From Lachnospiraceae bacterium (GTDB lineage Bacteria > Bacillota > Clostridia > Lachnospirales > Lachnospiraceae), in NCBI GenBank assembly GCA_017625255.1, contig JAGALK010000145.1, positions 2,463-66,462 of the forward strand: DNA of 64,000 bases, written 5' to 3'. Both the position numbers and the translations under genes were made by a program. The notes beneath the pieces are model-generated. The model was not told the DNA's origin and did no database searches. It saw nothing but the letters and a program-made list of their open reading frames with translations. How positions within the stretch are numbered: position 1 is the first letter of the stretch; every line of letters begins with the position of its first letter. Positions 1-45,183 of this stretch are shown one piece after another.

Positions 1-165
1 ACTTTTGCCGAAAGCTACAATATTGATGAAGTCAGTATTGTTTTCATCATTATTGCTTCTAAGGCGACGGTCAACGGCAAGAGTGTATCTTGCAATCGCT
101 GTTGTCTGTGTGTAGCGTACATCGGGATCTCTTGTCAAACGACCCATAAGAATTACTTTATTCAT
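1..165 (-). CDS. ssb: single-stranded DNA-binding protein, N-terminal 55 codons only (gene runs out of the window)
   Basis: My translation of the reverse strand from ATG 165-163 (SD aggaaggag upstream): MNKVILMGRLTRDPDVRYTQTTAIARYTLAVDRRLRSNNDENNTDFINIVAFGKS. This is the canonical SSB OB-fold N-terminus. It is missing from the ORF track because it is truncated. Confidence 0.8.
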   Translation of the reverse strand, partial: MNKVILMGRLTRDPDVRYTQTTAIARYTLAVDRRLRSNNDENNTDFINIVAFGKS

Positions 166-236
166 ATTTTCTCCTTCCTGCACCAACTTTTCTTCTTTGG
201 TGCGACCACCTCCGGTTTCTCCGGACTGGGTGGCTG

Positions 237-346
237 TGACGACAAAAAAAGGAAGTACCCCTATGGAGTTCTTCCCTACTGTTAATCTTTTTTGTCGCAA
301 ATATATGATACAAGTATATAATACATTTATTTTGGGAAAATTGCAA
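237..346 (-). promoter_or_regulatory. promoter-leader cassette A (drives ssb)
   Basis: -35 TTGCAA 346-341, 17-bp spacer, -10 TATTAT 323-318. Leader hairpin 275-251 (GGAAGAACUCCAUAGGGGUACUUCC) followed by U7 (250-244). Two further hairpins lie before the RBS. Confidence 0.6.
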
Positions 347-481
347 GAAAAATTTAAAAAAATAGTGCGATGTAGGCTGAAATTATCTATTTTTATGCGT
401 TTTAAACAAAGAATGTTCATCACAAGAACATTTTTATACTGTTTTTGTGCAAGTTGCACAATAGAAGCGTAGTGATATTCC

Positions 482-510
482 AAAAAAAAAAGCCCCGAAT
501 ATTCGAGGCT
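482..510 (-). terminator. intrinsic terminator after the AAA+ ATPase gene
   Basis: AGCCUCGAAUAUUCGGGGCU followed by U9. Confidence 0.7.
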
Positions 511-547
511 TTTCTGTAATTTCTTGTATCTACTGCACAAATGCGGA

Positions 548-2389
548 TTAAACCTTGCCTGCTTCGTACAGTTCTTTTGCTTCCTGTACCTTGTGTGCTT
601 CATAATAGGTATAGAAAGCACCAGTCAGTATATCTTCGAGGTCTTCATACACCTGCGTCGCTTTTGAAAGCATCGTAGGAAACGCAGAAGCGATAACACA
701 TTCTTCTGTGACTTCGAGTTCTTCCCAACGCATTGATAACAGCATCGCTTTTTTCGCCCAGTTGTCTAACTCACGGGGACCGCAAATACCGTCGGTAATG
801 TCGTGGTCGCCACAATACTGTGCTACTTTGTGACAGCAGTTTACCATTGTGGTAAGCATCTGCTCGTTGGGGAAGCCCGTGTTAGAAATACATCTCTTTA
901 CTAACTCCTTTGTTGTGGGAAGTTGCAAATCGTATCTTTCGTCCACACGGGATAATACTGCCTGCTGTAAACTCTTACAGCCAGCATATCCAAGATTAGT
1001 TGTAAAAATCACAACTGCGTCCGGGTGCCGTCTGATTACTTCGCCCGTAGGGAGAGTAATAACAGCAGTATCTCCATATTCAAGAAGTGCATTTAATTCC
1101 TCTAATACGGTTTCGCGTTTGATAATGGTGGGTTCCTGTATTTCAATTACCCAGCCATTTTCCAAAGCCTCAATAATAGGGCTTTTTACGAAAACGAAAT
1201 CAGAAGAGAGAGAAGAGTTTTCTTCCATACATCTTCTTGAAATTTCATTATAGCAGTCAGAAGGGGAATTATAAACCGTCGGCTTTTTACCAAACAGCTT
1301 TTCATAAGCACCCTCAAAGTCATTTTCCACATCTTCAAAAGTAGGAAGACCTATCTTCTTGCAGATGTTACTTACTTTCTCCACTGCCTTCCTTGTGTTC
1401 GGTAAAAGCTGACCGATAAGCCCAAAACCGTCGGTGTCGGGACCACAAGTAAAAATCTTATGCGGTAATCCGATTTTTTCGGCTATTGACATAGCCAATG
1501 TTGTTTTACCGCTACCCGCAATACCCGTGAACAGAATATTTCTTATGGGTTTTTTAAACATTGTAGAGTGGAAGAGGTCTAACAAAATTGTTTTTACCAG
1601 TTCCGTATCTACATAAGTATCGGGCATTGTCGGCACCAGCATTTCCTCATACGCCGTTAATTTACGGTTGGGATTGAAGAAATACTGTCCTTTTTTAATT
1701 TTTTCCTGCTTCGGTGCCGTTTTTGCGGTCTGTCCCAAGAACTTAACGGGATTAAACCACGGTTTTAACGCCGTATTTTCCGTTACTTTCTTTAAGGTGG
1801 ACTGACGGAAATCTTCCGTCTTCGCCTGCATCGTTCCCGTTGCTGATTTGTAATGGTAATAAAGATTATTTGTCAAAAGACACAACTTCTTACCTAACAC
1901 TTCCAGCATCAACGGATCGTCCCAATCGTCTGCATCGGGTTCTAACTGAACCAACGGCTTTAAGTCATTGACTACCGCTATCAGTTCACTATCTCCCTGT
2001 GCAAGATAATGTCCCAAAAGGCAGGCTTTAAGGACTGTACCTTTGCGGTTTGCACCGTAGGGGAGTAACGCCCCTTTTTCATTCATTTCTCTAACCTTAA
2101 ACAATCCGTCGGATTTACGGTCAGAGAGTGCAATCTGTTCGGTGCGGTTCTCAACAAGGTTATAAACTTCTGTCACAACCAAGTTAGGTTCCGTAGCGAT
2201 ATTGATTGCTTTTTCCGTGTCAAAACCGAACATCTGACGCAAAATCTTATAAAAAGAAGTATCAGTGTTCAGTCCTGTGCTGTTTGATGTACTCCAAGTG
2301 GTCTGCACATCTTTCTGCGACCAACGCAGTTTTAATTTTTTTAATTTTCCGGGAAGTTCCTCCCCGAATGTAAATAACTGGTATGCCAT
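548..2389 (-). CDS. AAA+ ATPase (AAA_5 / MoxR-dynein-like core) with unknown ~280-aa N-terminal region
   Basis: 613-aa ORF with Walker A GIAGSGKTT. The downstream VIEIQEP and VVIFTTNLG...LSRV segments are typical of AAA_5. ATG 2389 sits behind the hairpin-SD element T1, and a terminator follows the stop. Confidence 0.7.
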   Translation of the reverse strand: MAYQLFTFGEELPGKLKKLKLRWSQKDVQTTWSTSNSTGLNTDTSFYKILRQMFGFDTEKAINIATEPNLVVTEVYNLVENRTEQIALSDRKSDGLFKVREMNEKGALLPYGANRKGTVLKACLLGHYLAQGDSELIAVVNDLKPLVQLEPDADDWDDPLMLEVLGKKLCLLTNNLYYHYKSATGTMQAKTEDFRQSTLKKVTENTALKPWFNPVKFLGQTAKTAPKQEKIKKGQYFFNPNRKLTAYEEMLVPTMPDTYVDTELVKTILLDLFHSTMFKKPIRNILFTGIAGSGKTTLAMSIAEKIGLPHKIFTCGPDTDGFGLIGQLLPNTRKAVEKVSNICKKIGLPTFEDVENDFEGAYEKLFGKKPTVYNSPSDCYNEISRRCMEENSSLSSDFVFVKSPIIEALENGWVIEIQEPTIIKRETVLEELNALLEYGDTAVITLPTGEVIRRHPDAVVIFTTNLGYAGCKSLQQAVLSRVDERYDLQLPTTKELVKRCISNTGFPNEQMLTTMVNCCHKVAQYCGDHDITDGICGPRELDNWAKKAMLLSMRWEELEVTEECVIASAFPTMLSKATQVYEDLEDILTGAFYTYYEAHKVQEAKELYEAGKV

Positions 2390-2440
2390 TTCTCTTTACC
2401 TCTCCCGCACCACGCTGGGTACGGTTCCTTTCTTTTTTTC
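2390..2440 (-). promoter_or_regulatory. hairpin-SD translation-initiation element T1 (AAA+ ATPase gene)
   Basis: RNA sense: GAAAAAAAGAAAGGAA-CCGUACC CAGCGU GGUGCGG-GAGAGGUAAAGAGAA-AUG; hairpin at 2424-2405. Confidence 0.5.
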
Positions 2441-2454
2441 TATTTCTGTTTGTG

Positions 2455-2853
2455 TTACGAAAACGGATTAGTCGCCAGCATTTGTGCCGTTTTACGCAGG
2501 TTGTCTTCCTGCTTTTTCGGTTCCTGCTGTTTACCTCCGTTATTTTCCTTACTCTCAAAAGGTATAAACCCTTCGGAGTAAGAGATGTCGATTACTCTAT
2601 AACCGATTGCGTCCCTGCCGTCTTTTGCGTAGGGTAGCATTTCGGCTATAACATCGACTAGGCTTCCTTTTTTGGCTTTTAACTTACTAATGCGTGTTGC
2701 CTGCTCGTCAAAAGCTGAAAGCCAGATTTTCAGATATTGTCCGTTGTAGTGCTTGTTAGCCGAACAAATCGGAAAATCTACTCGTTTTCCTTCATTAGAA
2801 AACTTCAAATCCCCGCTGATGCGGAAATTTGTCAATATAGCTTTTCCTGCCAT
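2455..2853 (-). CDS. possible OB-fold ssDNA-binding-like protein (132 aa)
   Basis: Start trimmed to ATG 2853 (SD aaggag). It is SSB-sized, has a KKGSLVDV...RVIDISY beta-rich core and a flexible Q/E/K-rich tail ending NPFS. The resemblance to SSB is weak. Confidence 0.4.
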   Translation of the reverse strand: MAGKAILTNFRISGDLKFSNEGKRVDFPICSANKHYNGQYLKIWLSAFDEQATRISKLKAKKGSLVDVIAEMLPYAKDGRDAIGYRVIDISYSEGFIPFESKENNGGKQQEPKKQEDNLRKTAQMLATNPFS

Positions 2854-2880
2854 TTTTTCTCCTTTCTTATTTCTTATTTT

Positions 2881-3024
2881 TGACAACAAAAAAAGGAAGT
2901 TACCCCGTAGGAGTATCTTCCTCTTGTTAGTCTTATTTTGTTAAAATTTGTTACAAGTATATAATACAATAATATAGGAAACTTTGCAAGCATAAAAAAA
3001 AGAGAGTAGCAATAGCCACTCTCT
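2881..3024 (-). promoter_or_regulatory. terminator-promoter-leader cassette B
   Basis: Family terminator 3024-3001 plus U-run. -35 TTGCAA 2989-2984, 17-bp spacer, -10 TATTAT 2966-2961. TTGTAACAA start region; leader hairpin 2921-2895 plus U7 (2894-2888); outer arms GACUAACAA/UUGUUGUC. Confidence 0.65.
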
Positions 3025-3033
3025 AATTTTATT

Positions 3034-3417
3034 TTAGGGTAATGATATATGTTCCGGAGTAATAAGCAGTACGAGTTTTTCGTCTACCTTTCCGATGTGC
3101 ATTTCACACACTTCCGACGGAATACACTCATTATCTGATTTCCAAATCGTATTTACCATAATAGGTAAATCAATTCCTTGCAGATACTTCGTGTGTCCTT
3201 CGCATATATCGTCGGTCACAAGCGAGAATGATTTACTTCCGGTACAAGTCTGTAAATTTCTCATTCCTTCTACTGTCTGATAGAATTTATCTATCTTATT
3301 CCACGCTTCCGTCATAGAATTTGCATCTTTGACATCTTCGCAGAGAGAAACCGCAACCTGCCTTATTTCTTCTGCATAATTTACGGCTAATTTCAAGCCA
3401 ATTTTTGCATCACGCAT
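3034..3417 (-). CDS. hypothetical protein (127 aa)
   Basis: ATG 3417 with SD aaggagg; 2-nt gap to the upstream gene; no motif recognised. Confidence 0.6.
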   Translation of the reverse strand: MRDAKIGLKLAVNYAEEIRQVAVSLCEDVKDANSMTEAWNKIDKFYQTVEGMRNLQTCTGSKSFSLVTDDICEGHTKYLQGIDLPIMVNTIWKSDNECIPSEVCEMHIGKVDEKLVLLITPEHISLP

Positions 3418-3419
3418 AC

Positions 3420-3959
3420 TTACGCCTCCTTTCCGATGAAAAATGAAATATGATTAGCGTCTTTATCTAACGCTTCCATAATTTCTTTTTCTTCGTACAG
3501 GTAGGAACGGTGTGTTGTAGTAGTTCCAGTTTTACGACCATACATATAGTCATAACACACCTTTTCCCATTCCGCAGGAGAGTAGAAGATTTCTTCCGGT
3601 GTGCCTTTATTTACGGTTACACCAGTAAATACTTCTGCATAACATCTTCTGTTTTCTGTCAATTCGCCCCAAGTGATAGAACGCTTTAACATGCGCAGAA
3701 GATGCTCTGCGTAATCATAATAAGTGCAATAACGGCTTCCAATTTTTAAGTCAAATCCGTCTGCTTCCTTCATAGGAAGGCGGTCTTTCTTATAATTTTC
3801 AGCCATTTCCTTAAATTCTTCCTCGGTGTAAATTTTACCCCGGAAATCATCACGGCTTCTTCCAGCGTTATCGTTATTGCACCCCGACAAAGAGAGATGT
3901 AAAAGCCTGCCGTCTGACAATCGGACAATTTTGGTTTCAAAAATGATACTATAACTCAT
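3420..3959 (-). CDS. hypothetical protein (179 aa)
   Basis: ATG 3959 with SD ggaggtg; tightly packed; no motif recognised. Confidence 0.6.
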   Translation of the reverse strand: MSYSIIFETKIVRLSDGRLLHLSLSGCNNDNAGRSRDDFRGKIYTEEEFKEMAENYKKDRLPMKEADGFDLKIGSRYCTYYDYAEHLLRMLKRSITWGELTENRRCYAEVFTGVTVNKGTPEEIFYSPAEWEKVCYDYMYGRKTGTTTTHRSYLYEEKEIMEALDKDANHISFFIGKEA

Positions 3960-4329
3960 TATTTGTCACCTCCATATTGTCAATTATTTTATAGGTGCCA
4001 ATCAAAGCCTCTTTTTCTTTCTGTAATTCCTCGATTTTTTTTGTAATTCCGGGGATTTCCGTATAGCAAATATAATTAAAAAATTTAAGTTTTGTATCCA
4101 TTTCATTATCGCTTAATGTAATAAGAAACAAATACTTTGAAACGCAGGAATACGGCATTACATTATCAAGAATATTCTTCGGTACTCTTGTATATGAGTT
4201 GTAATATATATAACCTTTTTTTCCTTCTTCTCTTTGCACTGTATATACTTTTTCTGTTTCCTTCACTGTATATTCGTACTTTGTTATCTTCTGGTTTTTA
4301 ATATCTAAAATAAATTCGTATAACTTCAT
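3949..4329 (-). CDS. hypothetical protein (126 aa)
   Basis: ATG 4329 with SD tggagga; 11-nt overlap with the downstream gene. Confidence 0.6.
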   Translation of the reverse strand: MKLYEFILDIKNQKITKYEYTVKETEKVYTVQREEGKKGYIYYNSYTRVPKNILDNVMPYSCVSKYLFLITLSDNEMDTKLKFFNYICYTEIPGITKKIEELQKEKEALIGTYKIIDNMEVTNNEL

Positions 4330-4357
4330 TTGATTTCCTCCATTTTCTTCTAATCTT

Positions 4358-4558
4358 CTAAACCATAATTCCTATTTCTATTGATCCGTCTGCCATAGGT
4401 AGTGCGTCCCAACTTTTCACAGTTGCACAAAGTAAATCCTTACGGATTGTCTTTAATTCCGCATAAGTTCCTTCAAAAACCACATTTTCATTTGTATCTT
4501 CTGATATGTTGATAATATGGTTATCTCGGGTGCCTTTTAAAAACTCTCTTATTTTCAT
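4358..4558 (-). CDS. hypothetical protein (66 aa)
   Basis: ATG 4558 with SD taggagg. Confidence 0.55.
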   Translation of the reverse strand: MKIREFLKGTRDNHIINISEDTNENVVFEGTYAELKTIRKDLLCATVKSWDALPMADGSIEIGIMV

Positions 4559-4612
4559 AAGTTCCTCCTAAAATAGAAGAGGGCGGTTGTGAAACCACCC
4601 TCTCGTTAATAG

Positions 4613-4906
4613 TTACTGCAACACGGTCAACCAAGCGTCCGTGTCGATAAAATCCTGCCAGTTCATATCTATCAGTCCCAGCCCGTCGGCTATCTGATAG
4701 AGCCATTCCTTACATTCAACGCTTCCGTCTTCTGCAAGGTTTTTGGCGAGATTTTTCACTGTTTCTGTCAAGGTATCATTCTCTTTGGAATAACAATAGT
4801 CTGCATAATATAAATACGCATTTGTCGCTACTTCCTTCGGAGTGAAAGAACCTCGCCAGTTGACATTGCCATATTCGGCAATGTCATAAAAGTCTTCATA
4901 ACCCAT
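4613..4906 (-). CDS. hypothetical protein (97 aa)
   Basis: Track ORF 4613..5056 trimmed to ATG 4906, which has SD taaggagg. The longer form would overlap the upstream gene. Confidence 0.55.
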   Translation of the reverse strand: MGYEDFYDIAEYGNVNWRGSFTPKEVATNAYLYYADYCYSKENDTLTETVKNLAKNLAEDGSVECKEWLYQIADGLGLIDMNWQDFIDTDAWLTVLQ

Positions 4907-4916
4907 ACGAACCTCC

Positions 4917-5108
4917 TTACTGTGCCTGCTTTTCGCACCACCCATCGGATAAGTCGTATAAGTGGAAGTGTGAAGCTGTGCTGTATTCTGCAACTGCCTC
5001 TTCTTCCATTTCTTCTGCACAGTACCACATATTGATTGCGTCCTGTGCCAAGACACCGATAACTACCGCAAAAACAGTTGTTACGAGCATAAATCCCACA
5101 AATTCCAT
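4917..5108 (-). CDS. small membrane protein (63 aa)
   Basis: ATG 5108 with SD aaggagg; N-terminal hydrophobic helix FVGFMLVTTVFAVVIGVLA; first gene after cassette C. Confidence 0.55.
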   Translation of the reverse strand: MEFVGFMLVTTVFAVVIGVLAQDAINMWYCAEEMEEEAVAEYSTASHFHLYDLSDGWCEKQAQ

Positions 5109-5140
5109 GTGAGCCTCCTTTCTTCGCTTTTTAGCGATTT

Positions 5141-5287
5141 GTGACAACAAAAAAAGGAAGTACCCCCTACGGAGTTCTTCCTTAATTGTCAGCCTTATTT
5201 TGTTGTTGATTGTTACAAGGACATTGTAGCAAATTATAGAACACTTTGCAAGTATAAAAAAGAGGGTAGCAGTGTACCCTCTTTTTT
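5141..5287 (-). promoter_or_regulatory. terminator-promoter-leader cassette C
   Basis: Terminator 5287-5256. -35 TTGCAA 5251-5246, 17 bp, -10 TACAAT 5228-5223. Leader hairpin 5181-5156 plus U7. Mini-hairpin CGCUAAAAAGCG 5136-5125 before the SD. Confidence 0.65.
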
Positions 5288-5306
5288 AATCAAATATGTA
5301 TTTTAA

Positions 5307-5480
5307 TTACTTTTCCTCTCCTGTAAGAAGTACAACTTTGTCACTGTGTCCGACATCACAGAGTTCTAAATTATCAAAACTTCTTACATTCGGGAAATTA
5401 CTATATCCATCGGTAAAAACAAACTCAAATTCAAAATCTGCGTATTGTTCGCATAATTTAGCCAAATCTTTTCCTGACAT
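5307..5480 (-). CDS. hypothetical protein (57 aa)
   Basis: Trimmed to ATG 5480 (SD aaaggag). The upstream part of the track ORF crosses a terminator-like hairpin. Confidence 0.5.
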   Translation of the reverse strand: MSGKDLAKLCEQYADFEFEFVFTDGYSNFPNVRSFDNLELCDVGHSDKVVLLTGEEK

Positions 5481-5587
5481 ATTATTTCTCCTTTCACGAT
5501 AAAATGTGGATTTGGTTTCAAACCTAATTATTCTTACTCTTAAAATAATAGGAGAGTAGAATACTCCACTCTCCATAATCTTGTTTC

Positions 5588-6859
5588 TTATACGGCTTCT
5601 TCTACTGCACATTCCTTGATTTCAATTTTCTTCAAGGAAACGGGTTCATCAAGTTTCTTCTTCGGTGCGATTTTGTAATTACGCACTTCCTTGATTACCC
5701 CGCCGGCTTTTTGTGCCTTCTTATTCTCTTTGACAATTTCTTTTGTAATCTTGTCATACAAGGCTTTGTCAAATTTCTCTACAAGACACTGTTTATAAAG
5801 GTCCGGCTGTTCGGCTTTAAGCCGTTCTTCATCGAAACCTGTGCGGGTTTCTTTGTATTTCAATGAAATAGCCACATACTTTTCATCATCAAGACGGTAA
5901 GTAGCGTATTCCGTTCCCGCTTCGGCAAAAGAGAGAATAGCGTTTACCAAAGCATATTCCTCGGCTTCGATTGTTTCCAATGCCTTTTCTGCCTTTTCCT
6001 TCCTTGCGGTCAACTCTGTTGCCTTCTCAATCAGTTCGTAAATTTCGTAACTGTCGGGAAGTTCCACCGCAGGGGCGTTTTCAGCAGGTTCGCCGTAAAG
6101 TCTTGTGTAATATTCCGCAAGCATCTTCTCGCTTTTTACACAAGGTTCGGGTTCCTTGCCTTCGTAGCAACATTCAATGAAATCTGCTACCGAAGACATC
6201 ATCTGCTGTTCAATATCCATATCTCTGCGGATAAGGATAATTGCGTTTTCTGCCTTTGTAAAGCCCCAGCTACAAGTGAGATATACGAACTCCACATTGG
6301 CAATCGCCATATAGTACCGACACTGGTACTCGTAGGATTTCGGCGGTATGCCTAATTTCCAATTTTTAATGTCGCTGTAAGAACTTGTAGTTTTACATTC
6401 CACCAAGCCTTCAACGCCGTTTACTTTAACTCTGCGGTCAAAGTTACCGAGGGCGAAAGGGTAGTGAGGGTGCTGATACATTGTGGTATCGTTCCATATT
6501 TCAATATCCTTCACGCCCTCGTCCTCTTTCATTTTACGGACGAACATATTTGCCACAAATTCTTCCAATTCGTGACCTGCTCTTAAAGCCTCTTCGTTCA
6601 TCGGCTTTTCTACCGCAGTTTTTAATCCGGTCTTCTGGTGGAAGAGTTCAAGGTTGGTCTTAAATTTCGACACTCCAAGAATTACTCCCACATCGGAACC
6701 GCCTGCGGTGTACTCAATGTACTCCGGGTGCGTCGGATCGTCGTAATGAGGACCGTGCTTTCTGCACCCTAACCATTCGGGGCTTCCGTCCACATATTTG
6801 CCTAATGCGATAGGCTTGTAGTTGGTGTTGATAGTTCCTGCGTTTGATACTTTACTCAT
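5588..6859 (-). CDS. YqaJ/lambda-exonuclease-like PD-(D/E)XK recombination exonuclease with ~150-aa C-terminal coiled-coil extension
   Basis: Trimmed to ATG 6859 (SD aaaggagg). Contains GGSDVGVILG and FDRRV...GLVECKTT (D...ExK), as in YqaJ viral recombinase family nucleases. First gene after cassette D. Confidence 0.7.
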   Translation of the reverse strand: MSKVSNAGTINTNYKPIALGKYVDGSPEWLGCRKHGPHYDDPTHPEYIEYTAGGSDVGVILGVSKFKTNLELFHQKTGLKTAVEKPMNEEALRAGHELEEFVANMFVRKMKEDEGVKDIEIWNDTTMYQHPHYPFALGNFDRRVKVNGVEGLVECKTTSSYSDIKNWKLGIPPKSYEYQCRYYMAIANVEFVYLTCSWGFTKAENAIILIRRDMDIEQQMMSSVADFIECCYEGKEPEPCVKSEKMLAEYYTRLYGEPAENAPAVELPDSYEIYELIEKATELTARKEKAEKALETIEAEEYALVNAILSFAEAGTEYATYRLDDEKYVAISLKYKETRTGFDEERLKAEQPDLYKQCLVEKFDKALYDKITKEIVKENKKAQKAGGVIKEVRNYKIAPKKKLDEPVSLKKIEIKECAVEEAV

Positions 6860-6889
6860 AAAGTACCTCCTTTCTTGAATTTGTTTTTT

Positions 6890-7040
6890 TGACAACAAAA
6901 AAGGAAGCACCCCTACGGAGTATCTTCCTTATTGTTAGTCTTTTTTGTTAAGTTGTAGTTACAAGTATATATTACAATAATATGGGAAACTTTGCAAGCA
7001 TAAAAAAAAGAGAGTAGCAGTAGCCACTCTCTCCTTTTTT
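6890..7040 (-). promoter_or_regulatory. terminator-promoter-leader cassette D
   Basis: Terminator 7040-7003. -35 TTGCAA 6997-6992, 17 bp, -10 TAATAT 6974-6969. Leader hairpin 6928-6903 plus U6. Confidence 0.65.
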
Positions 7041-7045
7041 TTTCT

Positions 7046-7516
7046 TTACGCAACTACCATATAACCATTATAACGGTCATTGAGCTTAATTTTATGAGTT
7101 TCATAATCGAAATCTTCTGTTTCTTCTATGAAAATCTGTGAACTCAAAGTTGCATCAGTGACTTCTCCGTTTTTCCATTTTAGAACGAAAATTTTGTAAT
7201 TTCCCTGCGACTGATCGGAAAATTCGTGGTAGAGTTCTTCTTCTCCCAGCATTTCGGACAGCTTTTTTGCGACAAACATCGGAGTTGCGTTTGCTGTCTG
7301 CAAGAAAATAGTATCTTCTTTTGTGTCAGAAAAGTAAAGTCTTCCGTCGCAACCCCAGTTAGCATATCGCCAACCAAAAATACCCGTCGGATCATATTCT
7401 TCCGCATACTGGGCGTATTCTTCCGGTCTTGACGGAATTACGGCATTAAAATCTTCGCCGTCCCATAATTCTGTCAAGCCTTTCGCATTAAAAATGTTTC
7501 TGTAAATGTTACTCAT
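7046..7516 (-). CDS. hypothetical protein (156 aa)
   Basis: Trimmed to ATG 7516 (SD aaggag); first gene after cassette E. Confidence 0.6.
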   Translation of the reverse strand: MSNIYRNIFNAKGLTELWDGEDFNAVIPSRPEEYAQYAEEYDPTGIFGWRYANWGCDGRLYFSDTKEDTIFLQTANATPMFVAKKLSEMLGEEELYHEFSDQSQGNYKIFVLKWKNGEVTDATLSSQIFIEETEDFDYETHKIKLNDRYNGYMVVA

Positions 7517-7546
7517 AGGTTCTCCTTCCTGCCTTTTTAGGCATAG

Positions 7547-7700
7547 TGACAACAAAAATAGGAAGTACCCCTTGCGGAGTTCTTCCTATTGTTAGTCTTT
7601 TTTTGTCGTCAAGATTTTTGTTACAGTGTCATTGTACTATATTTTGCAGTAAATTTCAAGCATAAAAAAGAGAGTAGCAGTAGCCCACTCCCTTTTTTTA
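7547..7700 (-). promoter_or_regulatory. terminator-promoter-leader cassette E
   Basis: Terminator 7700-7665. -35 TTGAAA 7659-7654, 17 bp, -10 TACAAT 7636-7631. Leader hairpin 7586-7561 (GCAA loop) then UAUUUUUG. Mini-hairpin 7542-7531. Confidence 0.65.
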
Positions 7701-7703
7701 TTT

Positions 7704-7964
7704 TTATGTTCTTAATAAATCTCTCACGATGCGTCCACTAAAACCAAAGCTGTTGTCACTTTTTGCGTATTGCATTTGCAAATACTTACGGTCTACATAT
7801 TTTGCCAATATTAGATTTTCGCCGTTATGTAGGATAGTTCCGTCTTTATTCGGGATTACTTTGCCTAATTGTATCTCTTGCAATACCACAGCTTTCATTG
7901 CATCATAATTCGGGTAAATTACTCTCAAAAAACTTTCAAATTTTACTTCGTCAATTTGTATCAT
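7704..7964 (-). CDS. hypothetical protein (86 aa)
   Basis: ATG 7964 with SD gggagga; 1-nt gap to nrdG. Confidence 0.55.
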   Translation of the reverse strand: MIQIDEVKFESFLRVIYPNYDAMKAVVLQEIQLGKVIPNKDGTILHNGENLILAKYVDRKYLQMQYAKSDNSFGFSGRIVRDLLRT

Positions 7965-7965
7965 A

Positions 7966-8427
7966 CTATTTTTCCTCCCGTAATCTGATTACTTTCTGAT
8001 TTGTACTTCCCGCCCATTCATAATTTTCGTCCCTTAAATCAGACATATACTTCCCGGTCACAATAACATCTAATCCTTGCAGAAGTGGAAGCGTACTTAT
8101 TTCTTCGTATTCATATCCGGTATAGAGCCAAATTGTTTTTTCGGGATATGTTTCTCTGATTTCGTCAATCAGCATTGCAATCACATCACGGTTTGCAGTG
8201 TGAAGCGGATCGCCACCACTAAATGTAACACCGTCTATATGCGGTTTATCCAATTCCTTAAATAGTTCAGCCTTTGTTTCTTCGGTAAAGTCTAAACCGC
8301 AATTTATATCCCAAGTGATAGGATTGTGGCAACCGGGGCAGTGATGTTCACAGCCCGAAACCCACAACACTACACGCAAACCGTCACCATTACGCATATC
8401 GTCTTTGGTTATGTTATGATACTTCAT
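7966..8427 (-). CDS. nrdG: anaerobic ribonucleotide reductase activating protein (radical SAM)
   Basis: Trimmed to ATG 8427 (SD taggagg). GLRVVLWVSGCEHHCPGCHNP is the NrdG-type CxxxCxxC cluster motif. Lies directly downstream of nrdD. Confidence 0.85.
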   Translation of the reverse strand: MKYHNITKDDMRNGDGLRVVLWVSGCEHHCPGCHNPITWDINCGLDFTEETKAELFKELDKPHIDGVTFSGGDPLHTANRDVIAMLIDEIRETYPEKTIWLYTGYEYEEISTLPLLQGLDVIVTGKYMSDLRDENYEWAGSTNQKVIRLREEK

Positions 8428-8440
8428 ATTATAGTACCTC

Positions 8441-10582
8441 CTACATAGATTTTCTGTCGGCAATTTCTGCCATTTTAGCCGGATTAAGCCTTGTATCTCC
8501 GTGTACCCTTGAAAACGATAAGTACCCGTTCATTCGGTCTATTTTTGTAAGGTTACGGCTACCGCATTTCGGACAGAAATCCATTTCCAATTCTTGATGT
8601 CCGCAATCGTCACAATATGCCAACGACATATTCAAGCCTTCATAAAAACCTAATTTCATAGCCCTGCGTACCAGTACAATCATTGCTTTTTTATTGTAAT
8701 TGATAGGATAGCGTACATACTGGATTTTACCGCCGTTAAAATAATTCCAAAATCTTCCTTCCAAATCCTGCTTTTCAATAGGAGATATGTCCTCTGTAAC
8801 ATGACAATGGAAGCTGTTAGATACATACTCACGGTCTGATACACCCTTAATAATACCAAATTCCTGCCTAAACTGCTTAATCTGCTTACCGCAAAGGCTT
8901 TCTGCGGGTGTGCCGTATACAGCGTATAATCTGCCGTCTTCTTTCTTAAATTCAGCAATCTTATCATTGATATACTGCATTACTTCTAGCGCAAAAGCAC
9001 CGTCTTCTGTAATAGATTTTCCATTATATAGCTGTTGCAATTCGTTTAACGCTGTTACGCCAAAGGAAGCAGTTGCGGATTTTAATACTGGTTCAATCTT
9101 ATCGGATAATTGCAAGTGACCGCCATAAAATCCACCTTCACAAAAGCCTAACGGGTTCATACTTGCACGCATCTGCGATAAATAGTCATAGGTTCGGAGA
9201 TGTAATTTTCTTATCATCTCCATATAGTAGTCTAATTCATCATAAAAGTTGGTGTTTGCCCTTAATGATTTTGCGTAAATCATCGGCAAATGAAGAGATA
9301 CGGCACCGATATTAAATCTTCCAATAAATACGGGTGTATCGTTTTCGTCAGCTGGTTCCATACCGCCTCTTTCATACCACGGCGATAAAAATGCCCTGCA
9401 ACCCATAGGAGAAATTGCTTTTTTGTATTTCTTATAAATACTTGCCACATATCCTTCTCCGGTCAGTGATAACCAGTCCGGGTACATCGTTTTTGCGGAA
9501 CATTCAATGCCTGCATTGAAGACATCTTCCATTTCCCCGCCTTCGCCGTGTAATTCTTCATCATAAAGAAATACTAACTTGGGGAAAAGTACGGGTTTCT
9601 TATTTTCTTTCTTTCCTTGTCCGTTCTTTCGTACTTCTAAAATAGCTTTGCAAAGTTCTTTGCCCCATTTGGTATTAGAAAGACCGAAAGTAGCAGTAAT
9701 AAAAGGATAATCGCCCCGGCTACTTGCTACGGTATTAAATTTATACTCCCAGCCTTGAAAACCTTGTCGCATATCTTCGCATACATCTTCATACGCTAAT
9801 TGTTCTGCATCTGCAAGGTTCATATTGCATTTTTGAGTGTATTTTTTTAAGTATTTCTGGTAGCTTTTTTCTGCATATTTTTCTAATATATCGTCTACTT
9901 CGGGAATAGTAAAGCCACCATATTGTTGTGAAGCACTCATAAGGACCAAATCGCCAATTACATCGAAAGCAGTGTCTAATGTCTTGGGTTCGTTGTACCA
10001 CATATTACTCATATTAAAACCGCCTTCCAGCACTTTTTTAATATTGAATAAACAGCAGTTCATTGTATCTTGCCTTGCAGATTTATCGTGAATATAGATA
10101 TATCCAATACTTTCTGCAATTTTTTCGTTCTGATTAAGGAAATATTCAAGATACTGGGCGGTTTCTAATGTTTCCAGCTTCTTTACTCTCTTTGTACTTA
10201 CGAGTGTAAGGTCAGAATTTGCGTTATCCTTTCCACCGTTACTTTGTTCCCCTAAAAACTGAATAGACTGACAATCTCTCCATACCTTTGCGTTCATTTC
10301 CGCTTCCTTCTTAATCCAGTTTCGGTATGAACGATAGCTTTCCGCTACATCGGGACGGACTTCCTGTAATGCCAATTCCACGAAAGAGTGTAAGCGAGAT
10401 ACTTCAATAACATTATCAGAACGGGAAAATACATTTTTTTCAACCAATCCTACGATTTTGCCGATTTCTTCTTCTGAAAACTCTGTTGCAATTCGTTCTG
10501 CGGATTTTTCTATCGCCTTTATAATCTTCCCGGCGTTCCAGTTTTCTAAATTTCCAGCTTTTTTTCGCACATAATATTTCAT
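8441..10582 (-). CDS. nrdD: anaerobic (class III) ribonucleoside-triphosphate reductase
   Basis: Trimmed to ATG 10582 (SD aggggg). Has an N-terminal ATP-cone-like segment, a C-terminal Zn ribbon CDDCGH...CPKCGS and a glycyl-radical region RMNGYLS. 713 aa with no interruption. Confidence 0.9.
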   Translation of the reverse strand: MKYYVRKKAGNLENWNAGKIIKAIEKSAERIATEFSEEEIGKIVGLVEKNVFSRSDNVIEVSRLHSFVELALQEVRPDVAESYRSYRNWIKKEAEMNAKVWRDCQSIQFLGEQSNGGKDNANSDLTLVSTKRVKKLETLETAQYLEYFLNQNEKIAESIGYIYIHDKSARQDTMNCCLFNIKKVLEGGFNMSNMWYNEPKTLDTAFDVIGDLVLMSASQQYGGFTIPEVDDILEKYAEKSYQKYLKKYTQKCNMNLADAEQLAYEDVCEDMRQGFQGWEYKFNTVASSRGDYPFITATFGLSNTKWGKELCKAILEVRKNGQGKKENKKPVLFPKLVFLYDEELHGEGGEMEDVFNAGIECSAKTMYPDWLSLTGEGYVASIYKKYKKAISPMGCRAFLSPWYERGGMEPADENDTPVFIGRFNIGAVSLHLPMIYAKSLRANTNFYDELDYYMEMIRKLHLRTYDYLSQMRASMNPLGFCEGGFYGGHLQLSDKIEPVLKSATASFGVTALNELQQLYNGKSITEDGAFALEVMQYINDKIAEFKKEDGRLYAVYGTPAESLCGKQIKQFRQEFGIIKGVSDREYVSNSFHCHVTEDISPIEKQDLEGRFWNYFNGGKIQYVRYPINYNKKAMIVLVRRAMKLGFYEGLNMSLAYCDDCGHQELEMDFCPKCGSRNLTKIDRMNGYLSFSRVHGDTRLNPAKMAEIADRKSM

Positions 10583-10601
10583 ATTTATACCCCCTAAAAA
10601 G

Positions 10602-10642
10602 AAAAAAAAGACAGCTTTCACAAATTTTTTGTAAAAACTGCC
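10602..10642 (-). terminator. terminator-like hairpin inside the nrdD leader
   Basis: GGCAGUUUUUACAAA-AAA-UUUGUGAAAGCUGUC followed by U8. Located between the nrdD promoter and RBS. Confidence 0.5.
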
Positions 10643-10680
10643 TTTTCATTGAAAAAGTTTTGTTGTTATAAAGTAAACTT

Positions 10681-10732
10681 ATAATATCATAAGCGGTAAA
10701 AATTTGCAAGAACTATTTTGTTAATGTATACT
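10681..10732. promoter_or_regulatory. back-to-back divergent promoters sharing one palindromic -35 hexamer
   Basis: TTGCAA at 10704-10709 is its own reverse complement. Plus strand: 17 bp then TATACT 10727-10732 (toward 10768). Minus strand: 17 bp then TATTAT 10686-10681 (toward nrdD). Confidence 0.55.
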
Positions 10733-10767
10733 ATACAGTAATAAATAATATAGAATGGAGTGGTTTT

Positions 10768-11427
10768 ATGCTTTTTTTTGAAGAAGAGAAGATTTCGACA
10801 GCTGACAAGCCTAAAAATACTCAAAAAAAGGCTGATTTGTCTGTTTTTTATAAGAAATTCTCCGATATGGAAGTATTGATCCGTGAAATTCAGCAAGCAT
10901 CTGACAGTAAGAGTGCTGTTGCTTTATCTAACCGTCTATTATCATCTGTTAATCTGCTATATCGGGACATGAAAGAAGTGCTTTCAAGGTACCTTTTTTC
11001 GACTTATCAAGAACCTCCTGCTGTATTACAGCGTCCGGTAAAAGCTACGGTAGATTATTCAGATAAGGTACTCTATATTTCTTTTGATTGCCTTCCTGCT
11101 AAAAGAATAAAGAACATTTATGATATAAACCACACTTTTTCTTATTGTTTCGGCAATGCCCTTGATGATGCAAATTCTTGGTACCGTCAAATCAATGGTA
11201 TTATTCCACGGTACCGAGAAAAAGTAGTGATATGGTATATCGTTCATTATAAAAAAGAAACGAATGTATGCGATTATGATAATTATGATTTTAAGCCCAT
11301 AACCGATAGTATTTCTTCTCTTTTTTTGCAGGACGATGCACCGCAGTTTGTTTCACAGTTTTTTGATGCGTGTGAAGATACCAATGATTATTTAGAAATC
11401 CGGGTACTTCCCCAAACGCAGTTTTAA
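10768..11427 (+). CDS. protein with C-terminal RusA-like Holliday-junction resolvase motif (219 aa)
   Basis: ATG 10768 with SD aatggag. CDYDNYDFKPITDSISSLFLQDDAPQFV matches the RusA DxDNxxKxxxDxL...DD signature. The N-terminal ~90 aa are unassigned. Confidence 0.45.
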   Translation: MLFFEEEKISTADKPKNTQKKADLSVFYKKFSDMEVLIREIQQASDSKSAVALSNRLLSSVNLLYRDMKEVLSRYLFSTYQEPPAVLQRPVKATVDYSDKVLYISFDCLPAKRIKNIYDINHTFSYCFGNALDDANSWYRQINGIIPRYREKVVIWYIVHYKKETNVCDYDNYDFKPITDSISSLFLQDDAPQFVSQFFDACEDTNDYLEIRVLPQTQF

Positions 11428-11439
11428 GGAGATTTTAAT

Positions 11440-11772
11440 ATGTCAGAAGATAGTATCATTGAAAAATTACATAGCATATCTGAAATGTATTCCGATAATT
11501 CTTCCAGCAATGAAGCTATTACGCAAGCTATTTCTTATATAGAAGAATTGAAAGAATATCATTCTGTCGGCACCGTCAATTATGTCCGTGAATTGAATGA
11601 TTTATATGTAGGCAAAGAACCGCTGTTTGTGAAGCGTTCTTTTACCAATTTTTATATTTGCCCCCATTGTTCAACGAATGAAACTTATAATCCCGTTTAT
11701 TCCCAAGCAGAGCATTGTAGTAAATGCGGTGGCAGGCTTTTATGGAAACACAAGGAAAGAAAGGAGAACTAA
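11440..11772 (+). CDS. small zinc-ribbon protein (110 aa)
   Basis: ATG 11440 with SD aaggag; CPHC...CSKCGG pair at the C-terminus. Confidence 0.55.
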   Translation: MSEDSIIEKLHSISEMYSDNSSSNEAITQAISYIEELKEYHSVGTVNYVRELNDLYVGKEPLFVKRSFTNFYICPHCSTNETYNPVYSQAEHCSKCGGRLLWKHKERKEN

Positions 11773-11774
11773 CG

Positions 11775-13979
11775 ATGTCAAAAATGATTATTATTACAGA
11801 AAAACCGTCTGTCGCACAAGATTACCGCAAATATTTGCAGGTTAATTCCACAGAAAAAAACGACGGTTATATTGAAGGTTATTCTACTGTTTTTAATAAG
11901 GAAGTAATTATTACATGGGCGAGGGGACACCTTGTTACGATGTCATATCCGCAGGCTTACGACGAAAGCCTTAAACAGTGGTCCCTTGATAGTCTTCCTT
12001 TTCTTCCTGCGGAATATAAGTATGAAGTTATTGCAGATGTAAAAAAACAATTCTATACCATAAAAAAGTTATACCACCGGGACGATATTGATGCCATTTA
12101 TTACGCAGGTGATAGTGCCCGTGAAGGTCTTTATATTCAAATGCTTATTCGCCAAATTGCAGGCGTAAAGCGTGGAATAACAGAAAAAGTAGTATGGATT
12201 GACAGCACTACGGAGAAGGAAATACTACGAGGGATCCGTGAGGCGAAAGATATTAGTGCTTATCAATTAAAGAAAGAAAGTGCCTATATGCGTGCAATCG
12301 AAGATTACGCTGTCGGCATCAATTTTTCAAGAGCCTTAACCTGTAAATTCGGTGCTGATTTCAATAAAACATTAGGTACAAGCAGTTGGACTTCCATATC
12401 AGCCGGGCGTGTAATGAGTTGCGTTTTAGGTATGATTGTTTCAAGGGAAAGAGAAATTAAAAATTTCGTTGTTACTCCCTTTTATCGTGTCGTAGCTGAT
12501 GTAGCAGGCGTTACGGCTAACTGGAAGGCTGTAAGCACTTCTGCGTGGTTTGAAAGCCCGCTTTTATATAACGAAACGGGATTTATTAAGGAAAGCGATG
12601 CAAGCCTCCTTGTTAATACTATGCAGAAGACACCTACACTTACTGTTGATAAGGTAAAAACAACCGAAGAGAAAAAGGGTGCGTCCCTTTTATTCAATCT
12701 TGCGGAATTACAGTATTTTTGTTCCAAGAAGTATAAGATTTCGCCCGATGATACTCTTGCCGTAGCACAGAAACTATACGAGGCAAAAATGATAACTTAT
12801 CCGAGAACTGATGCAAGAGTATTATCAACTGCGATTGCATCTGATTTACGAGATAATTTGAATGGGCTTGCAAAGTTTGGATATAAAAGCCATTTTATTA
12901 AAATTATTGCACAGAACGGTTGGCATCATAATATCGTAAAATCTCCTTATGTTGATGATGCGAAAATTTCAGACCACTATGCGATTATTCCTACGGGTAA
13001 TACTGCCAGCGTGAATGAATTATCAGACCTTGAATTGAATATCTTTTATGATATTATTGAAAGGTTTTTATGTATATTCTTCCCTCCTTGCGTTTACGAA
13101 AAAACAGAAGTGGTTTTCGCCCATGTTCTCGGAGAACGCTTCTTTGCATCTGCAAAAACTATTAAAAGCGTAGGGTTTATGGCTATCCTTGACGAAACCA
13201 CGGAAACGGAAGAAAATCCATTAAGCCTTTTAAAAGAGGGCGATGAATTTAATGATATTCCTTTTTCTATAAAGGAAGGTACCACTACACCTCCGAAACG
13301 ATATACTTCGGGTAGTATGGTGATCGCAATGGAAAATGCAGGAAAAATGATAGAAGATGAAGAATTGCGTGCCAATATTATCGGTTCCGGTATCGGCACC
13401 TCTGCGACAAGGGCTTCCATTATTAAAAAGCTGGTTGATATTTCCTATATACAGCTGAACAAAAAGACACAGATACTTACCCCTACCGTGATAGGAGAGA
13501 GTGTTTATGATATTCTTCTTGCTAATATGCCTGCGTTGCTGTCCCCGGAAATGACTGCATCTTGGGAAAAGGGTTTGACTGAAATCGAAGACGGTAAAGT
13601 AACTGCGGAAGAATACCGCAGGAAGTTGGAAAAATATGTGACTGATGAAGTCAATAAAATCAAACAGTCGCAAAGTTCTTTTGAACTGCCCGAAGGCGTG
13701 GAAATTCAGAAACTTATGTGTCCGGTCTGCGGAAAGGGAGAAGTAAGAGAGAACTCAAAAGGCTTTGGCTGTTCTGATTACCGCAACGGCTGTAAATTCT
13801 TCATTCAGAAGGAAATTGCCGGGAAGAAGATAACGGTAAATCAAGTTGCTAAATTAGTCGCAGGAGAGCGTACTGGTGTCCTCAAAGGCTTTAAGAATAA
13901 AGAGGGTAAGGAGTTTAGTGCATCGTTAGAGTTGCAGAATGGAAAAGTAGCTTTTGTATTTCCAAGAAAAAAGTCATAA
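11775..13979 (+). CDS. type IA DNA topoisomerase (topoisomerase III-like) with C-terminal zinc ribbons
   Basis: Trimmed to ATG 11775 (SD aaaggag). TOPRIM start MIIITEKPSVA, acidic motif GDSAREG, active-site region ITYPRTDA, and C-terminal CPVCGKG...CSDYRNGCKF. Confidence 0.85.
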   Translation: MSKMIIITEKPSVAQDYRKYLQVNSTEKNDGYIEGYSTVFNKEVIITWARGHLVTMSYPQAYDESLKQWSLDSLPFLPAEYKYEVIADVKKQFYTIKKLYHRDDIDAIYYAGDSAREGLYIQMLIRQIAGVKRGITEKVVWIDSTTEKEILRGIREAKDISAYQLKKESAYMRAIEDYAVGINFSRALTCKFGADFNKTLGTSSWTSISAGRVMSCVLGMIVSREREIKNFVVTPFYRVVADVAGVTANWKAVSTSAWFESPLLYNETGFIKESDASLLVNTMQKTPTLTVDKVKTTEEKKGASLLFNLAELQYFCSKKYKISPDDTLAVAQKLYEAKMITYPRTDARVLSTAIASDLRDNLNGLAKFGYKSHFIKIIAQNGWHHNIVKSPYVDDAKISDHYAIIPTGNTASVNELSDLELNIFYDIIERFLCIFFPPCVYEKTEVVFAHVLGERFFASAKTIKSVGFMAILDETTETEENPLSLLKEGDEFNDIPFSIKEGTTTPPKRYTSGSMVIAMENAGKMIEDEELRANIIGSGIGTSATRASIIKKLVDISYIQLNKKTQILTPTVIGESVYDILLANMPALLSPEMTASWEKGLTEIEDGKVTAEEYRRKLEKYVTDEVNKIKQSQSSFELPEGVEIQKLMCPVCGKGEVRENSKGFGCSDYRNGCKFFIQKEIAGKKITVNQVAKLVAGERTGVLKGFKNKEGKEFSASLELQNGKVAFVFPRKKS

Positions 13980-24557: not shown

Positions 24558-24589
24558 AGGCAACCTCCTTTCTGCCTTTTTAGGCTTTG

Positions 24590-45175: not shown

Positions 45176-45183
45176 GTATTCTT

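Follow-up and report, generated by a model that had tools for sequence, protein, structure and literature searches.

Terminator-like hairpins between promoter and ribosome-binding site in twelve operon leaders of a plasmid-like Clostridia element

Why would an operon place a hairpin resembling an intrinsic terminator between its own promoter and its first ribosome-binding site (RBS)? This question is raised by a stretch of 64,000 nucleotides from a Lachnospiraceae bacterium (NCBI GenBank assembly GCA_017625255.1, contig JAGALK010000145.1, positions 2,463 to 66,462 of the forward strand), here called the window and numbered from its first letter. On the minus strand of the window, 12 operon leaders, namely cassettes A-F, the nrdD leader and cassettes G-K, were found to share one layout, which consists of a sigma-A-type promoter, an unstructured A-rich leader of ~30 nt, a GC hairpin, a U6-8 run and the RBS. 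The original prediction that each cassette carries a hairpin and U-run between its own promoter and its first RBS was borne out in all 12. Cassette B, which heads a gene for an SSB-like protein, serves as the example:

3002-3023, minus strand: T1 of cassette B, an end-of-gene terminator directly upstream of the -35, GAGAGUGGCUAUUGCUACUCUC followed by U8
2882-2989, minus strand: cassette B as a whole
2984-2989, minus strand: -35 of cassette B
2961-2966, minus strand: -10 of cassette B
2924-2932, minus strand: leader box GACUAACAA
2895-2921, minus strand: hairpin of 27 nt with 11 pairs, one A.A mismatch and one U.G pair, folding free energy (dG) -12.5 kcal/mol
2888-2894, minus strand: U7
2882-2887, minus strand: GUUGUC
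2853, minus strand: ATG of the SSB-like gene

The RNA of cassette B at 2882-2932 reads, on the minus strand, GACUAACAAGA-GGAAGAUACUCCUACGGGGUAACUUCC-UUUUUUU-GUUGUC. From 3024 to 2853, the order on this strand is T1, the promoter TTGCAA-N17-TATTAT (2989-2961), a conserved CTTGTAAC, an A-rich leader ending in GACUAACAAGA, the hairpin, U7, GUUGUC, AAGGAG and the ATG. The hairpin begins 39 nt past the promoter, AAGGAG follows 20 nt beyond GUUGUC, and the ATG is situated 41 nt downstream of the hairpin. The remaining leaders are as follows:

238-346, minus strand: cassette A, -35 at 341-346, -10 at 318-323, hairpin at 251-275, U7 at 244-250; homologous stretch 238-296
5143-5251, minus strand: cassette C, -35 at 5246-5251, -10 at 5223-5228, hairpin at 5156-5181, U7 at 5149-5155; homologous stretch 5143-5194
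6891-6997, minus strand: cassette D, -10 at 6969-6974, hairpin at 6903-6928, U6 at 6897-6902, with the YqaJ/RecE-like exonuclease gene downstream; homologous stretch 6891-6940
7548-7659, minus strand: cassette E, -35 at 7654-7659, -10 at 7631-7636, hairpin at 7561-7586, tail UAUUUUU at 7554-7560; homologous stretch 7548-7607
10602-10709, minus strand: nrdD leader, -35 at 10704-10709, -10 at 10681-10686, 15-bp hairpin at 10610-10642, U8 at 10602-10609
24591-24701, minus strand: cassette F, without upstream T1, -10 at 24673-24678, hairpin at 24604-24630, U7 at 24597-24603; homologous stretch 24591-24641
45400-45532, minus strand: cassette G, -35 at 45527-45532, -10 at 45504-45509, 41-nt hairpin at 45422-45462, U6 at 45416-45421, with a structured leader of ~290 nt downstream of the U-run
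47385-47495, minus strand: cassette H, -35 at 47490-47495, -10 at 47467-47472, hairpin at 47398-47423, U7 at 47391-47397; homologous stretch 47385-47444
51784-51891, minus strand: cassette I, -35 at 51886-51891, -10 at 51863-51868, hairpin at 51797-51821, U7 at 51790-51796; homologous stretch 51784-51833
55261-55371, minus strand: cassette J, -10 at 55343-55348, hairpin at 55275-55301, C plus U7 at 55267-55274, with a structured leader of ~130 nt downstream of the U-run; homologous stretch 55261-55312
56301-56421, minus strand: cassette K, -35 at 56416-56421, -10 at 56393-56398, hairpin at 56314-56341, U7 at 56307-56313

Nine homologous copies (A-F, H, I and J) were found by repeat finding and pattern searches, and nine of the 12 window hairpins are near-identical to each other. 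The details noted earlier for these copies hold: their loops differ (GUA, UAC, AUA, GCAA or AAC), B and F possess an additional U-A pair, and the U.G wobble would be a C.A mismatch on the opposite strand. The stems of G and K are, as had been stated, unrelated to those of the other copies and occupy the same position, with the flanks retained on both sides (upstream GCUAACAA / GGCUGACAA, downstream UUUUUUGUUGUUG / UUUUUUUGUCGU). The nrdD leader likewise carries the unrelated hairpin plus U8 that had been described for it (10642-10602).

In terms of sequence, the hairpins have the character of intrinsic terminators. Their dG ranges from -8 to -16 kcal/mol, the U-run is at least 6 nt long in most copies, and an A-tract lies upstream of the hairpin in many, especially in the relatives introduced below. 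Altogether 35 hairpins were scored, comprising 34 leader hairpins and a non-member at 53 kb. A d'Aubenton-Carafa-type score was positive in 33 of them (range -13 to 43, mean 21), while the T1 end-of-gene terminators scored 8 to 50. Apart from E and J, all leader hairpins (32/34) combine a positive score with a U-run abutting the stem, and by these sequence criteria they are indistinguishable from the end-of-gene terminators of the element. The opposite strand behaves differently. Antisense scores averaged -33, falling below 0 in 33/35 hairpins and being positive only in 2/35, and the mean fold dG was -12.2 kcal/mol for the sense strand versus -8.7 kcal/mol for the antisense strand (Wilcoxon p = 7e-6). 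At least one G.U pair is present in 29 of the 35 hairpins. The G.U pairs, the stability of the sense fold and the sense-only terminator scores together indicate that the leader hairpin is an RNA element of the mRNA strand, in line with the intrinsic-terminator-like feature originally proposed.

Folding of the 12 window leaders recovered the hairpin in both the minimum free energy and the centroid structure of each, leaving the 5' ~30 nt unpaired, and the leader folds had z = -2.9 to -5.5 against dinucleotide shuffles. It had also been suggested that an outer helix could form after read-through. For the window copies this stands, since pairing of GAC(U)AACAA with UUGUUGUC adds 8-10 kcal/mol to the fold, and L046_a and L046_b, two copies of a related contig, gain a comparable amount through a different pair. 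Most other lineages show only the A-tract:U-tract extension that is usual for strong terminators, without an outer helix, which suggests that this helix is largely lineage-specific and lies outside the conserved design.

The relatives were obtained by several routes. Among INPHARED phages no close relative was found (megablast of 1-12000), and IMG/VR scans with the stem pattern and the flank pattern gave no matches. A stem-pattern scan of GTDB yielded one true relative, the 105-kb contig JAZQHB010000008.1 of an Acutalibacteraceae metagenome-assembled genome, which is 77-95% identical to the window and contains at least 11 cassettes. More distant syntenic contigs were reached via homologues of the YqaJ/RecE-like exonuclease encoded after cassette D. 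The syntenic relatives L046 (a 132-kb contig), L048, L050, L051 and L052 show 45-54% protein identity, and the gene order integrase, nrdD, yqaJ, DUF3854, AAA ATPase, ssb and VWA/CobT is common to the relatives. In the intergenic regions of these five contigs the same layout occurs 22 more times with completely different hairpins. The stems read GGACAUUUC-UUCG-GAGAUGUCC in L046, and GACUUGCC-GAAA-GGCAGGUC and GAGAUUUCUC-AUC-GAGAAAUCUC in L048, while L052 carries four different ones. Three of the four L046 hairpins are identical and the fourth has two compensating changes. The earlier statement that structure is conserved rather than sequence is therefore well supported by 22 instances with unrelated stems. 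RNAalifold applied to a MAFFT alignment of the 34 hairpins gave a weak consensus (5 pairs, -0.9 kcal/mol), the alignment not being structural across lineages, and was not used as evidence.

What persists where a stem has been replaced (G, K and L052) is a box of 7-9 nt beside the hairpin. It is lineage-specific, does not fold by itself and corresponds to no Rfam family; in L052, all four different hairpins are preceded by a UGUGCUUAAAA or UGUGUUGAAAA box. Two more distant loci with ~35% identity, L053 and L054, largely lack the layout.

Two other sets of database matches were discarded. The second GTDB match, Ruminococcus sp. UBA4350, is a chance match: its near-identical hairpin GGAAGAAACUCC-GAAU-GGGGUUUCUUCC plus U6 (L001 979-1005, DGSY01000090.1) terminates a gene in the ordinary way, in chromosomal DNA of high GC, and the stem sequence itself is therefore not special. 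Matches of the flank pattern GACTAACAA-N18-44-TTTTTTGTTGTC in JGI metagenomes came from 38 contigs, all unrelated and mostly ordinary terminators. They include a family from 11 soil contigs (L009, L010, L012-L014, L021, L032, L034, L035, L040 and L045) with the sequence GAGUAAUUUGAGC-GACUAACAAUUUUGCUUAGCAGGCUGGCUCCGGG..CCGGGGCUUUUUUGUUGUC, whose flanks are alike by chance and which resembles the 3' portion of a structured RNA, terminator included.

All 12 window leaders contain a promoter with a 17-bp spacer ending 38-51 nt ahead of the hairpin. Over window and relatives together, with four mis-picked promoters corrected by hand, about 32 of 34 cassettes have a gap of 31-44 nt from -10 to hairpin, the spacer is 17 bp in 33/34, and the -10 is TG-extended in 20/34. 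To place this against chance, the coding strand of the window and the five relatives (159 kb) was scanned with one fixed promoter rule and one fixed terminator rule. A terminator hairpin started 30-59 nt after the -10 at 27 of 76 stringent promoter-like sites, where 1.2 were expected from the terminator density, and 26 of these 27 sites fell into a single bin at 30-44 nt. A second peak at -75 to -46 corresponds to T1 just upstream of the -35. The same scan gave 0/13 in 50 kb of the Butyrivibrio megaplasmid pCY186, 0/2 in pNP243, 0/4 in L053 and 1/5 in L054. With control replicons near zero, the layout is clade-specific and is explained neither by the scanner nor by AT-rich DNA, and the negative controls pCY186, pNP243 and L053 rule out a generic trait of Clostridial plasmids.

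Around the predicted start site, T-R-T-A-A is conserved at positions 6-10 after the -10 across the 34 cassettes. Several relatives have TATAAM here, which amounts to a second -10-like hexamer, and the window copies have TGTAAC. This motif could be start-site context or a sigma-dependent pause element; the latter is unsupported in the window, where TGTAAC is without the key A.

Given such a position, the downstream genes should depend on read-through, as had been predicted, because the hairpin stands between promoter and RBS and most copies have no second promoter. In 8 of the 12 window leaders only 37-47 nt separate the end of the hairpin from the ATG, and therefore no further promoter fits; the claim that there is no space for one holds for these eight and not for all 12. 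Two candidate promoters were rejected. One would use the conserved CTTGTAAC as its -35, but its spacing to -10-like hexamers is not conserved and E and H have an insertion there; the other, an antisense plus-strand promoter TTGTTA-N16-TATAAT at 2938-2965, is present only in B and D.

How such a device might work can be outlined as follows. Each cassette would be a self-contained head of a transcription unit, comprising a promoter for host sigma-A (in many cases with a TG-extended -10), an unstructured A-rich leader of ~30 nt starting RUAA(C)AAA, the short lineage-specific box and a strong intrinsic terminator (A-tract, GC-rich hairpin, U6-8), with a predicted transcript end near +55 to +85. 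Most polymerases initiating at the cassette promoter would, by default, stop there and leave a short leader RNA, and the operon beyond would be transcribed only by polymerases that pass the terminator. The operons that would be gated in this way encode the SSB-like protein, a MoxR-type AAA ATPase, the YqaJ/RecE exonuclease, NrdD/NrdG and many small proteins. We tentatively favour, with somewhat less than even confidence, that the leader terminators gate each operon and that a common trans-acting factor sets the read-through for all cassettes. This factor, of element or host origin, would render polymerase terminator-resistant and might be recruited at the promoter or via the leader box. The gate would form a second regulatory tier below the operator-controlled promoters lacking a leader terminator (described below). 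In addition, the leader hairpin would end transcription arriving from the upstream operon, as the sole terminator there where T1 is absent. Termination as such, regulated read-through and the nature of the factor are what we infer here from the DNA.

Several observations favour a common gate. The terminators are uniformly strong and not tuned gene by gene, the box beside the hairpin survives replacement of the stem, and the presence of two promoter classes suggests a cascade. There are also precedents in lambda Q, pLS20 (PMC8191782, PMC13401043), Tn916 (PMC11658703) and LoaP (PMC12691694). Other points weigh against it. The window scans gave no antiterminator candidate and no Rfam match. The processive systems known so far load a single time, where a long operon begins, and a promoter with a terminator at every operon is more reminiscent of a fixed attenuator that forms part of every expression module. 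The uniformity within a genome can stem from gene conversion instead of selection, and conservation of the box has another possible cause, because the box of the window lineage is also a strand of the outer helix.

None of the 12 folded leaders offered a competing antiterminator fold, no sequence complementary to either hairpin arm was found elsewhere on the sense strand of the window, and no leader open reading frame (ORF), meaning a start codon with an RBS, was seen by eye in the leader sequences. Rfam returned nothing credible, either for the whole window at gathering thresholds or for 44900-45700 at a relaxed E-value. No N, Q, NusG/LoaP or sigma-like protein was detected with PHROGs on 20 larger ORFs, and none of these families was among the Pfam and NCBIfam families listed for 94 ORFs (25 of 46 listed in one NCBIfam batch). 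An antiterminator-type family was likewise missing from the Pfam and NCBIfam families listed, with no ConAn1-specific search run. These scans agree with the earlier remark that the window holds no recognisable antiterminator gene. On these results, antitermination is a possible rather than a demonstrated switch of the read-through.

Both the window (20249-21241, probable) and L052 (9221-9766) encode a protein with a Phage_ProQ_C-like (Tudor-like) domain. The similarity is weak, and no FinO domain as such was detected. ProQ/FinO-type proteins bind terminator hairpins, and this protein is a weak lead as a hairpin binder.

The most far-reaching form of the proposal, possible but rather unlikely in our estimate, is an unrecognised antitermination system in large plasmid-like elements of gut Oscillospirales. 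Here the ~35-nt leader or the box would be the site of action of a factor without similarity to N, Q, LoaP and ConAn1, or of a host polymerase altered by the element, and a dozen identical promoter-proximal terminators would open at once. If true, antitermination would turn many constitutive promoters into one co-ordinated replication and recombination regulon.

The history of the cassettes bears on the alternatives. Six 8-kb, partly overlapping pieces of the 105-kb relative contig were compared with the window. The relative diverges exactly at the H hairpin (47392), a gene is missing beside T1 of B (3032), and further breaks or indels are present at 24705/24710 (F), 55418 (J) and 56430/56448 (K). 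None of these breaks, at B, F, H, J and K, is more than 40 nt away from a cassette; cassettes account for about 3.5% of the window. Directly ahead of the F cassette, the 105-kb relative carries an inserted G-type cassette and leader with 93% identity, compared with ~80% for the flanking genes, which points to a recent move of the cassette together with its leader; the insertion is situated at L004 5663-6023 and corresponds to window 45522-45161. An identity matrix gave the positional orthologue as the best match for A, C, D and J, whereas B, F, H and I are often closest to other cassettes of the same genome, suggesting that cassettes are partly homogenised within a genome. A homologous T1 common to B, C, D, E, H and I extends the repeat to ~175 bp, while in A, F and K no T1 adjoins the promoter. 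Taken together, the whole ~110-175-bp cassette appears to behave as a recombining module. Besides that of B, the T1 copies are:

5262-5281, minus strand: homologous or analogous T1
7010-7031, minus strand: homologous or analogous T1
7670-7692, minus strand: homologous or analogous T1
45652-45672, minus strand: homologous or analogous T1
47506-47527, minus strand: homologous or analogous T1
51902-51922, minus strand: homologous or analogous T1
55394-55413, minus strand: homologous or analogous T1

Compared with a switch, a constitutive leaky attenuator and insulator is almost as good an explanation of the data. In such a device a strong promoter would be coupled to a ~90% terminator that is never switched, giving low, context-independent expression, and the hairpin would also block read-in from the upstream operon. 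We consider this possible, though doubtful. In its favour, neither a regulator nor an alternative fold was found, the leader hairpin is the only inter-operon terminator in A, F, K, L046_a, L048_b, L050_b, L052_a, L052_b and L052_d, and both the synteny breaks and the partial homogenisation described above fit a mobile unit. With a similarly modest probability, the cassette could be a portable promoter plus damper that lets gene modules shuffle between replicons without disturbing their neighbours. The PeSL (promoter-early stem-loop) cassettes of T4-like phages have been described in like terms (PMC2839356, PMC4122927), and leaky terminators balance phage gene expression (PMC9163698). However, tuning predicts differences in strength from gene to gene, while most copies of a genome carry the same strong terminator. 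A weak promoter would be a cheaper route to low expression, and a plain damper needs neither the fixed 31-44-nt spacing nor a conserved box.

Three further explanations concern the RNA or the DNA itself. An A-rich single-stranded 5' part followed by a terminator hairpin and a U-tail is the layout of Hfq-/ProQ-type and 3'UTR-type small RNAs, the latter using the same terminator as the mRNA upstream. The terminated RNA of ~55-85 nt might then be the product itself, a dozen copies of which would titrate a host RNA-binding protein or act on targets. The promoter with a terminator at about 65 nt, the unstructured 5' half, the 5' start RUAA(C)AAA and AACAAAAU motif common to the window, L046 and L048/L050 leaders, and the Phage_ProQ_C-like protein of the window and L052 are compatible with this. 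We nevertheless regard it as improbable: every copy directly precedes an RBS and gene, the cassette promoter must serve its gene because 8 of 12 genes have no other possible promoter, and the leaders diverge between lineages except for A-richness and the AACAAAAU motif. Between leader terminator and RBS, a GCC-NNNN-GGC hairpin stands directly 5' of the Shine-Dalgarno (SD) sequence (GCCUAAAAAGGC-AGAAAGGAGG) in several lineages, at approximately 5119-5134 (C), 7524-7538 (E), 24566-24580 (F), 47362-47376 (H) and L046 9975-9990 plus three more. It may keep the SD clear of the U-rich terminator arm, or cap the 5' end after processing.

Processing forms an explanation of its own, in which the A-tract/U-tract and the outer helix would, upon read-through, lengthen the hairpin to an imperfect duplex of ~22 bp that is stabilising or is cut by RNase III or another nuclease. 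The extended fold of the window copies, L046_a and L046_b speaks for it, as does the small hairpin 5' of the SD in C, E, F, H, all four L046 copies, L048_a, L050_a, L052_c and L052_d. The outer helix is absent from most other lineages, though, and the U-run, needless for processing, is the invariant feature. Moreover, ~30 nt lie between the hairpin and the predicted 5' end, a distance too great for protection, which also rules out a 5'-terminal stabiliser hairpin. Processing is thus very unlikely in our view, and the chance is just as slim that the GCC-NNNN-GGC hairpin beside the SD becomes a protective 5' end. We give hardly any credence to a DNA-level site, that is, an imperfect bulged palindrome flanked by GACTAAC / GTTGTC serving in recombination (a folded site of the integron attC type) or in replication (single-strand initiation). 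Structure is indeed kept without sequence and bases are bulged, the plus-strand GTTAGTC is similar to the attC core GTTRRRY, the window contains a gene for a tyrosine recombinase (14580-15623), and synteny breaks occur at cassettes. But G.U pairs and U-run exist only in the mRNA sense, the position is fixed to the promoter and not to gene 3' ends, and other lineages keep only A-tract, hairpin and U-tract, without attC-like flanks. On this strand asymmetry and the missing flanks, the attC-like or single-strand-origin site was rejected.

The favoured gating by read-through can be compared with known systems. In lambda, the constitutive promoter PR' has a strong intrinsic terminator, tR', close by; 6S RNA is made by default, and the Q antiterminator overcomes the terminator. 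The cassettes are alike in that a promoter has a nearby downstream terminator, a short RNA would be the default and the genes would need read-through. However, lambda has one such site compared with twelve in the window, the window scans found no Q homologue, and the start-site element TGTAAC of the window lacks the key A. Gram-positive conjugative elements are also Firmicutes mobile elements with intrinsic terminators in 5' leaders, acting as insulators to be overcome, as for pLS20 conAn1/conAn2 (PMC8191782), the pLS20 zipper-type attenuator (PMC13401043), Tn916 canT (PMC11658703) and LoaP leaders (PMC12691694). Theirs is one long leader (e.g. 456 nt) ahead of one long operon, with an antiterminator fold or a dedicated RNA or protein. 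The window leaders, in contrast, measure ~35 nt, are unstructured and stand at every operon, and the analysis found no long structured RNA. Strong intrinsic terminators of the ordinary kind share the A-tract, GC-rich stem, tetraloop or triloop, U6-8 and equal scores, but follow a stop codon, whereas the leader terminators follow a promoter at a fixed 31-44 nt.

PeSL elements of T4-type phages are also close in form, being repeated ~100-bp intergenic cassettes of a strong sigma-70-type promoter and a terminator stem-loop (Arbiol et al. 2010, PMC2839356; Comeau et al. 2014, PMC4122927). They are likewise conserved within a genome, different between lineages, and found at indel or replacement boundaries of close relatives. 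Their stem-loop, however, is mostly between -35 and -10 or overlaps the -10 (PMC2839356), whereas here it is about 35 nt past the start site. Since it lies within or abuts the promoter, the PeSL stem-loop stops upstream transcription only and leaves the cassette's own transcripts unobstructed; the transcripts of the cassettes described here must pass the hairpin. Only one copy in the window is arranged as in PeSL:

52998-53054, minus strand: the 53-kb non-member, hairpin plus U-run at 52998-53023, promoter at 53054-53026

As its hairpin (53023-52998) starts 2 nt past the -10, it cannot form in the transcript of that promoter and is not a leader element; it is a terminator overlapping a promoter. 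The hosts differ as well, PeSL belonging to a T4-like phage and the present cassettes to a plasmid-like Clostridia replicon.

The layout thus combines two known kinds, the promoter-proximal terminator and the mobile promoter-terminator cassette. Promoter-proximal terminators are so far known as single switches (lambda tR', plasmid leaders, riboswitches), while here one device heads essentially every replication, recombination and nucleotide-metabolism operon in at least six diverged lineages of an uncharacterised gut Clostridia element family. If read-through is regulated, this would be a multi-site regulon and a pointer to a new antitermination factor. If it is constitutive, the cassette would be a natural portable damper made of a strong promoter and a strong terminator that also insulates and serves as a recombination module, carrying the PeSL idea further than T4-like phages. 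In both cases, automated annotation would read the leader terminators as operon ends and mis-call the transcription units.

The replicon itself was originally framed as a phage, which now seems doubtful. The window encodes a Rep3-type initiator (56439-57647), 36% identical to Butyrivibrio megaplasmid initiators, beside an array of 22-bp iterons. At least 10 direct repeats of this length (TTACTGTTTTTCTACATAAC-like) form three clusters at 57940-58492, just upstream of the Rep3-type gene, and this region is probably the replication origin of a plasmid-like replicon. Topoisomerase III, NrdD/NrdG, the YqaJ exonuclease, the SSB-like protein, the MoxR-type AAA ATPase and helicases are also encoded, together with the tyrosine recombinase (14580-15623), a PemK toxin among toxin-antitoxin genes, two YopX proteins and an RstR/DicA-like repressor. 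Phage virion genes (capsid, terminase) were not seen in the window. With its plasmid-like content, the element has the look of a large plasmid or phage-plasmid and not of a lytic phage.

The leader-terminator class is found at 0-10.7 kb and 45-56.4 kb, where it heads the operons for replication, recombination and nucleotide metabolism, and once more at 24.6 kb. In the second promoter class, leader terminators are missing. An operator-like palindrome, ACAAGGTATCATTATGATACTCTGT, lies between promoter and RBS at 42.3 kb and is also present upstream of the 60.7-kb and 62.85-kb promoters. The sites of this 25-bp palindrome (mRNA sense) are 42257-42297, 60778-60818, 63001-63041 and 63048-63088. It is probably the operator for a repressor, and the RstR/DicA-like HTH protein is encoded within the 16-40 kb region. 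Plain terminator-then-promoter junctions occur at 35.05, 28.7, 22.3 and 21.8 kb.

Two further minus-strand elements were noted. The long leaders after G and J have a structured AGCAAGCACCGAACC-hairpin-GGUGUAGGGGAGGCUUGU in common (45184-45225 and 55205-55250, dG about -15.5 kcal/mol), the G copy of which has no Rfam match. Finally, a translation-initiation module precedes at least five genes (44393-44435, 48099-48141 and 56246-56287; also 2382-2444, 45139-45160 and 55116-55151). It consists of a strong SD-like GAAAGGAAG, an 8-bp hairpin GCCGUACC-N6-GGUACGGC and AAAGGUAA, with the ATG 7-9 nt on, and could serve to bind a translational regulator or to space the SD.

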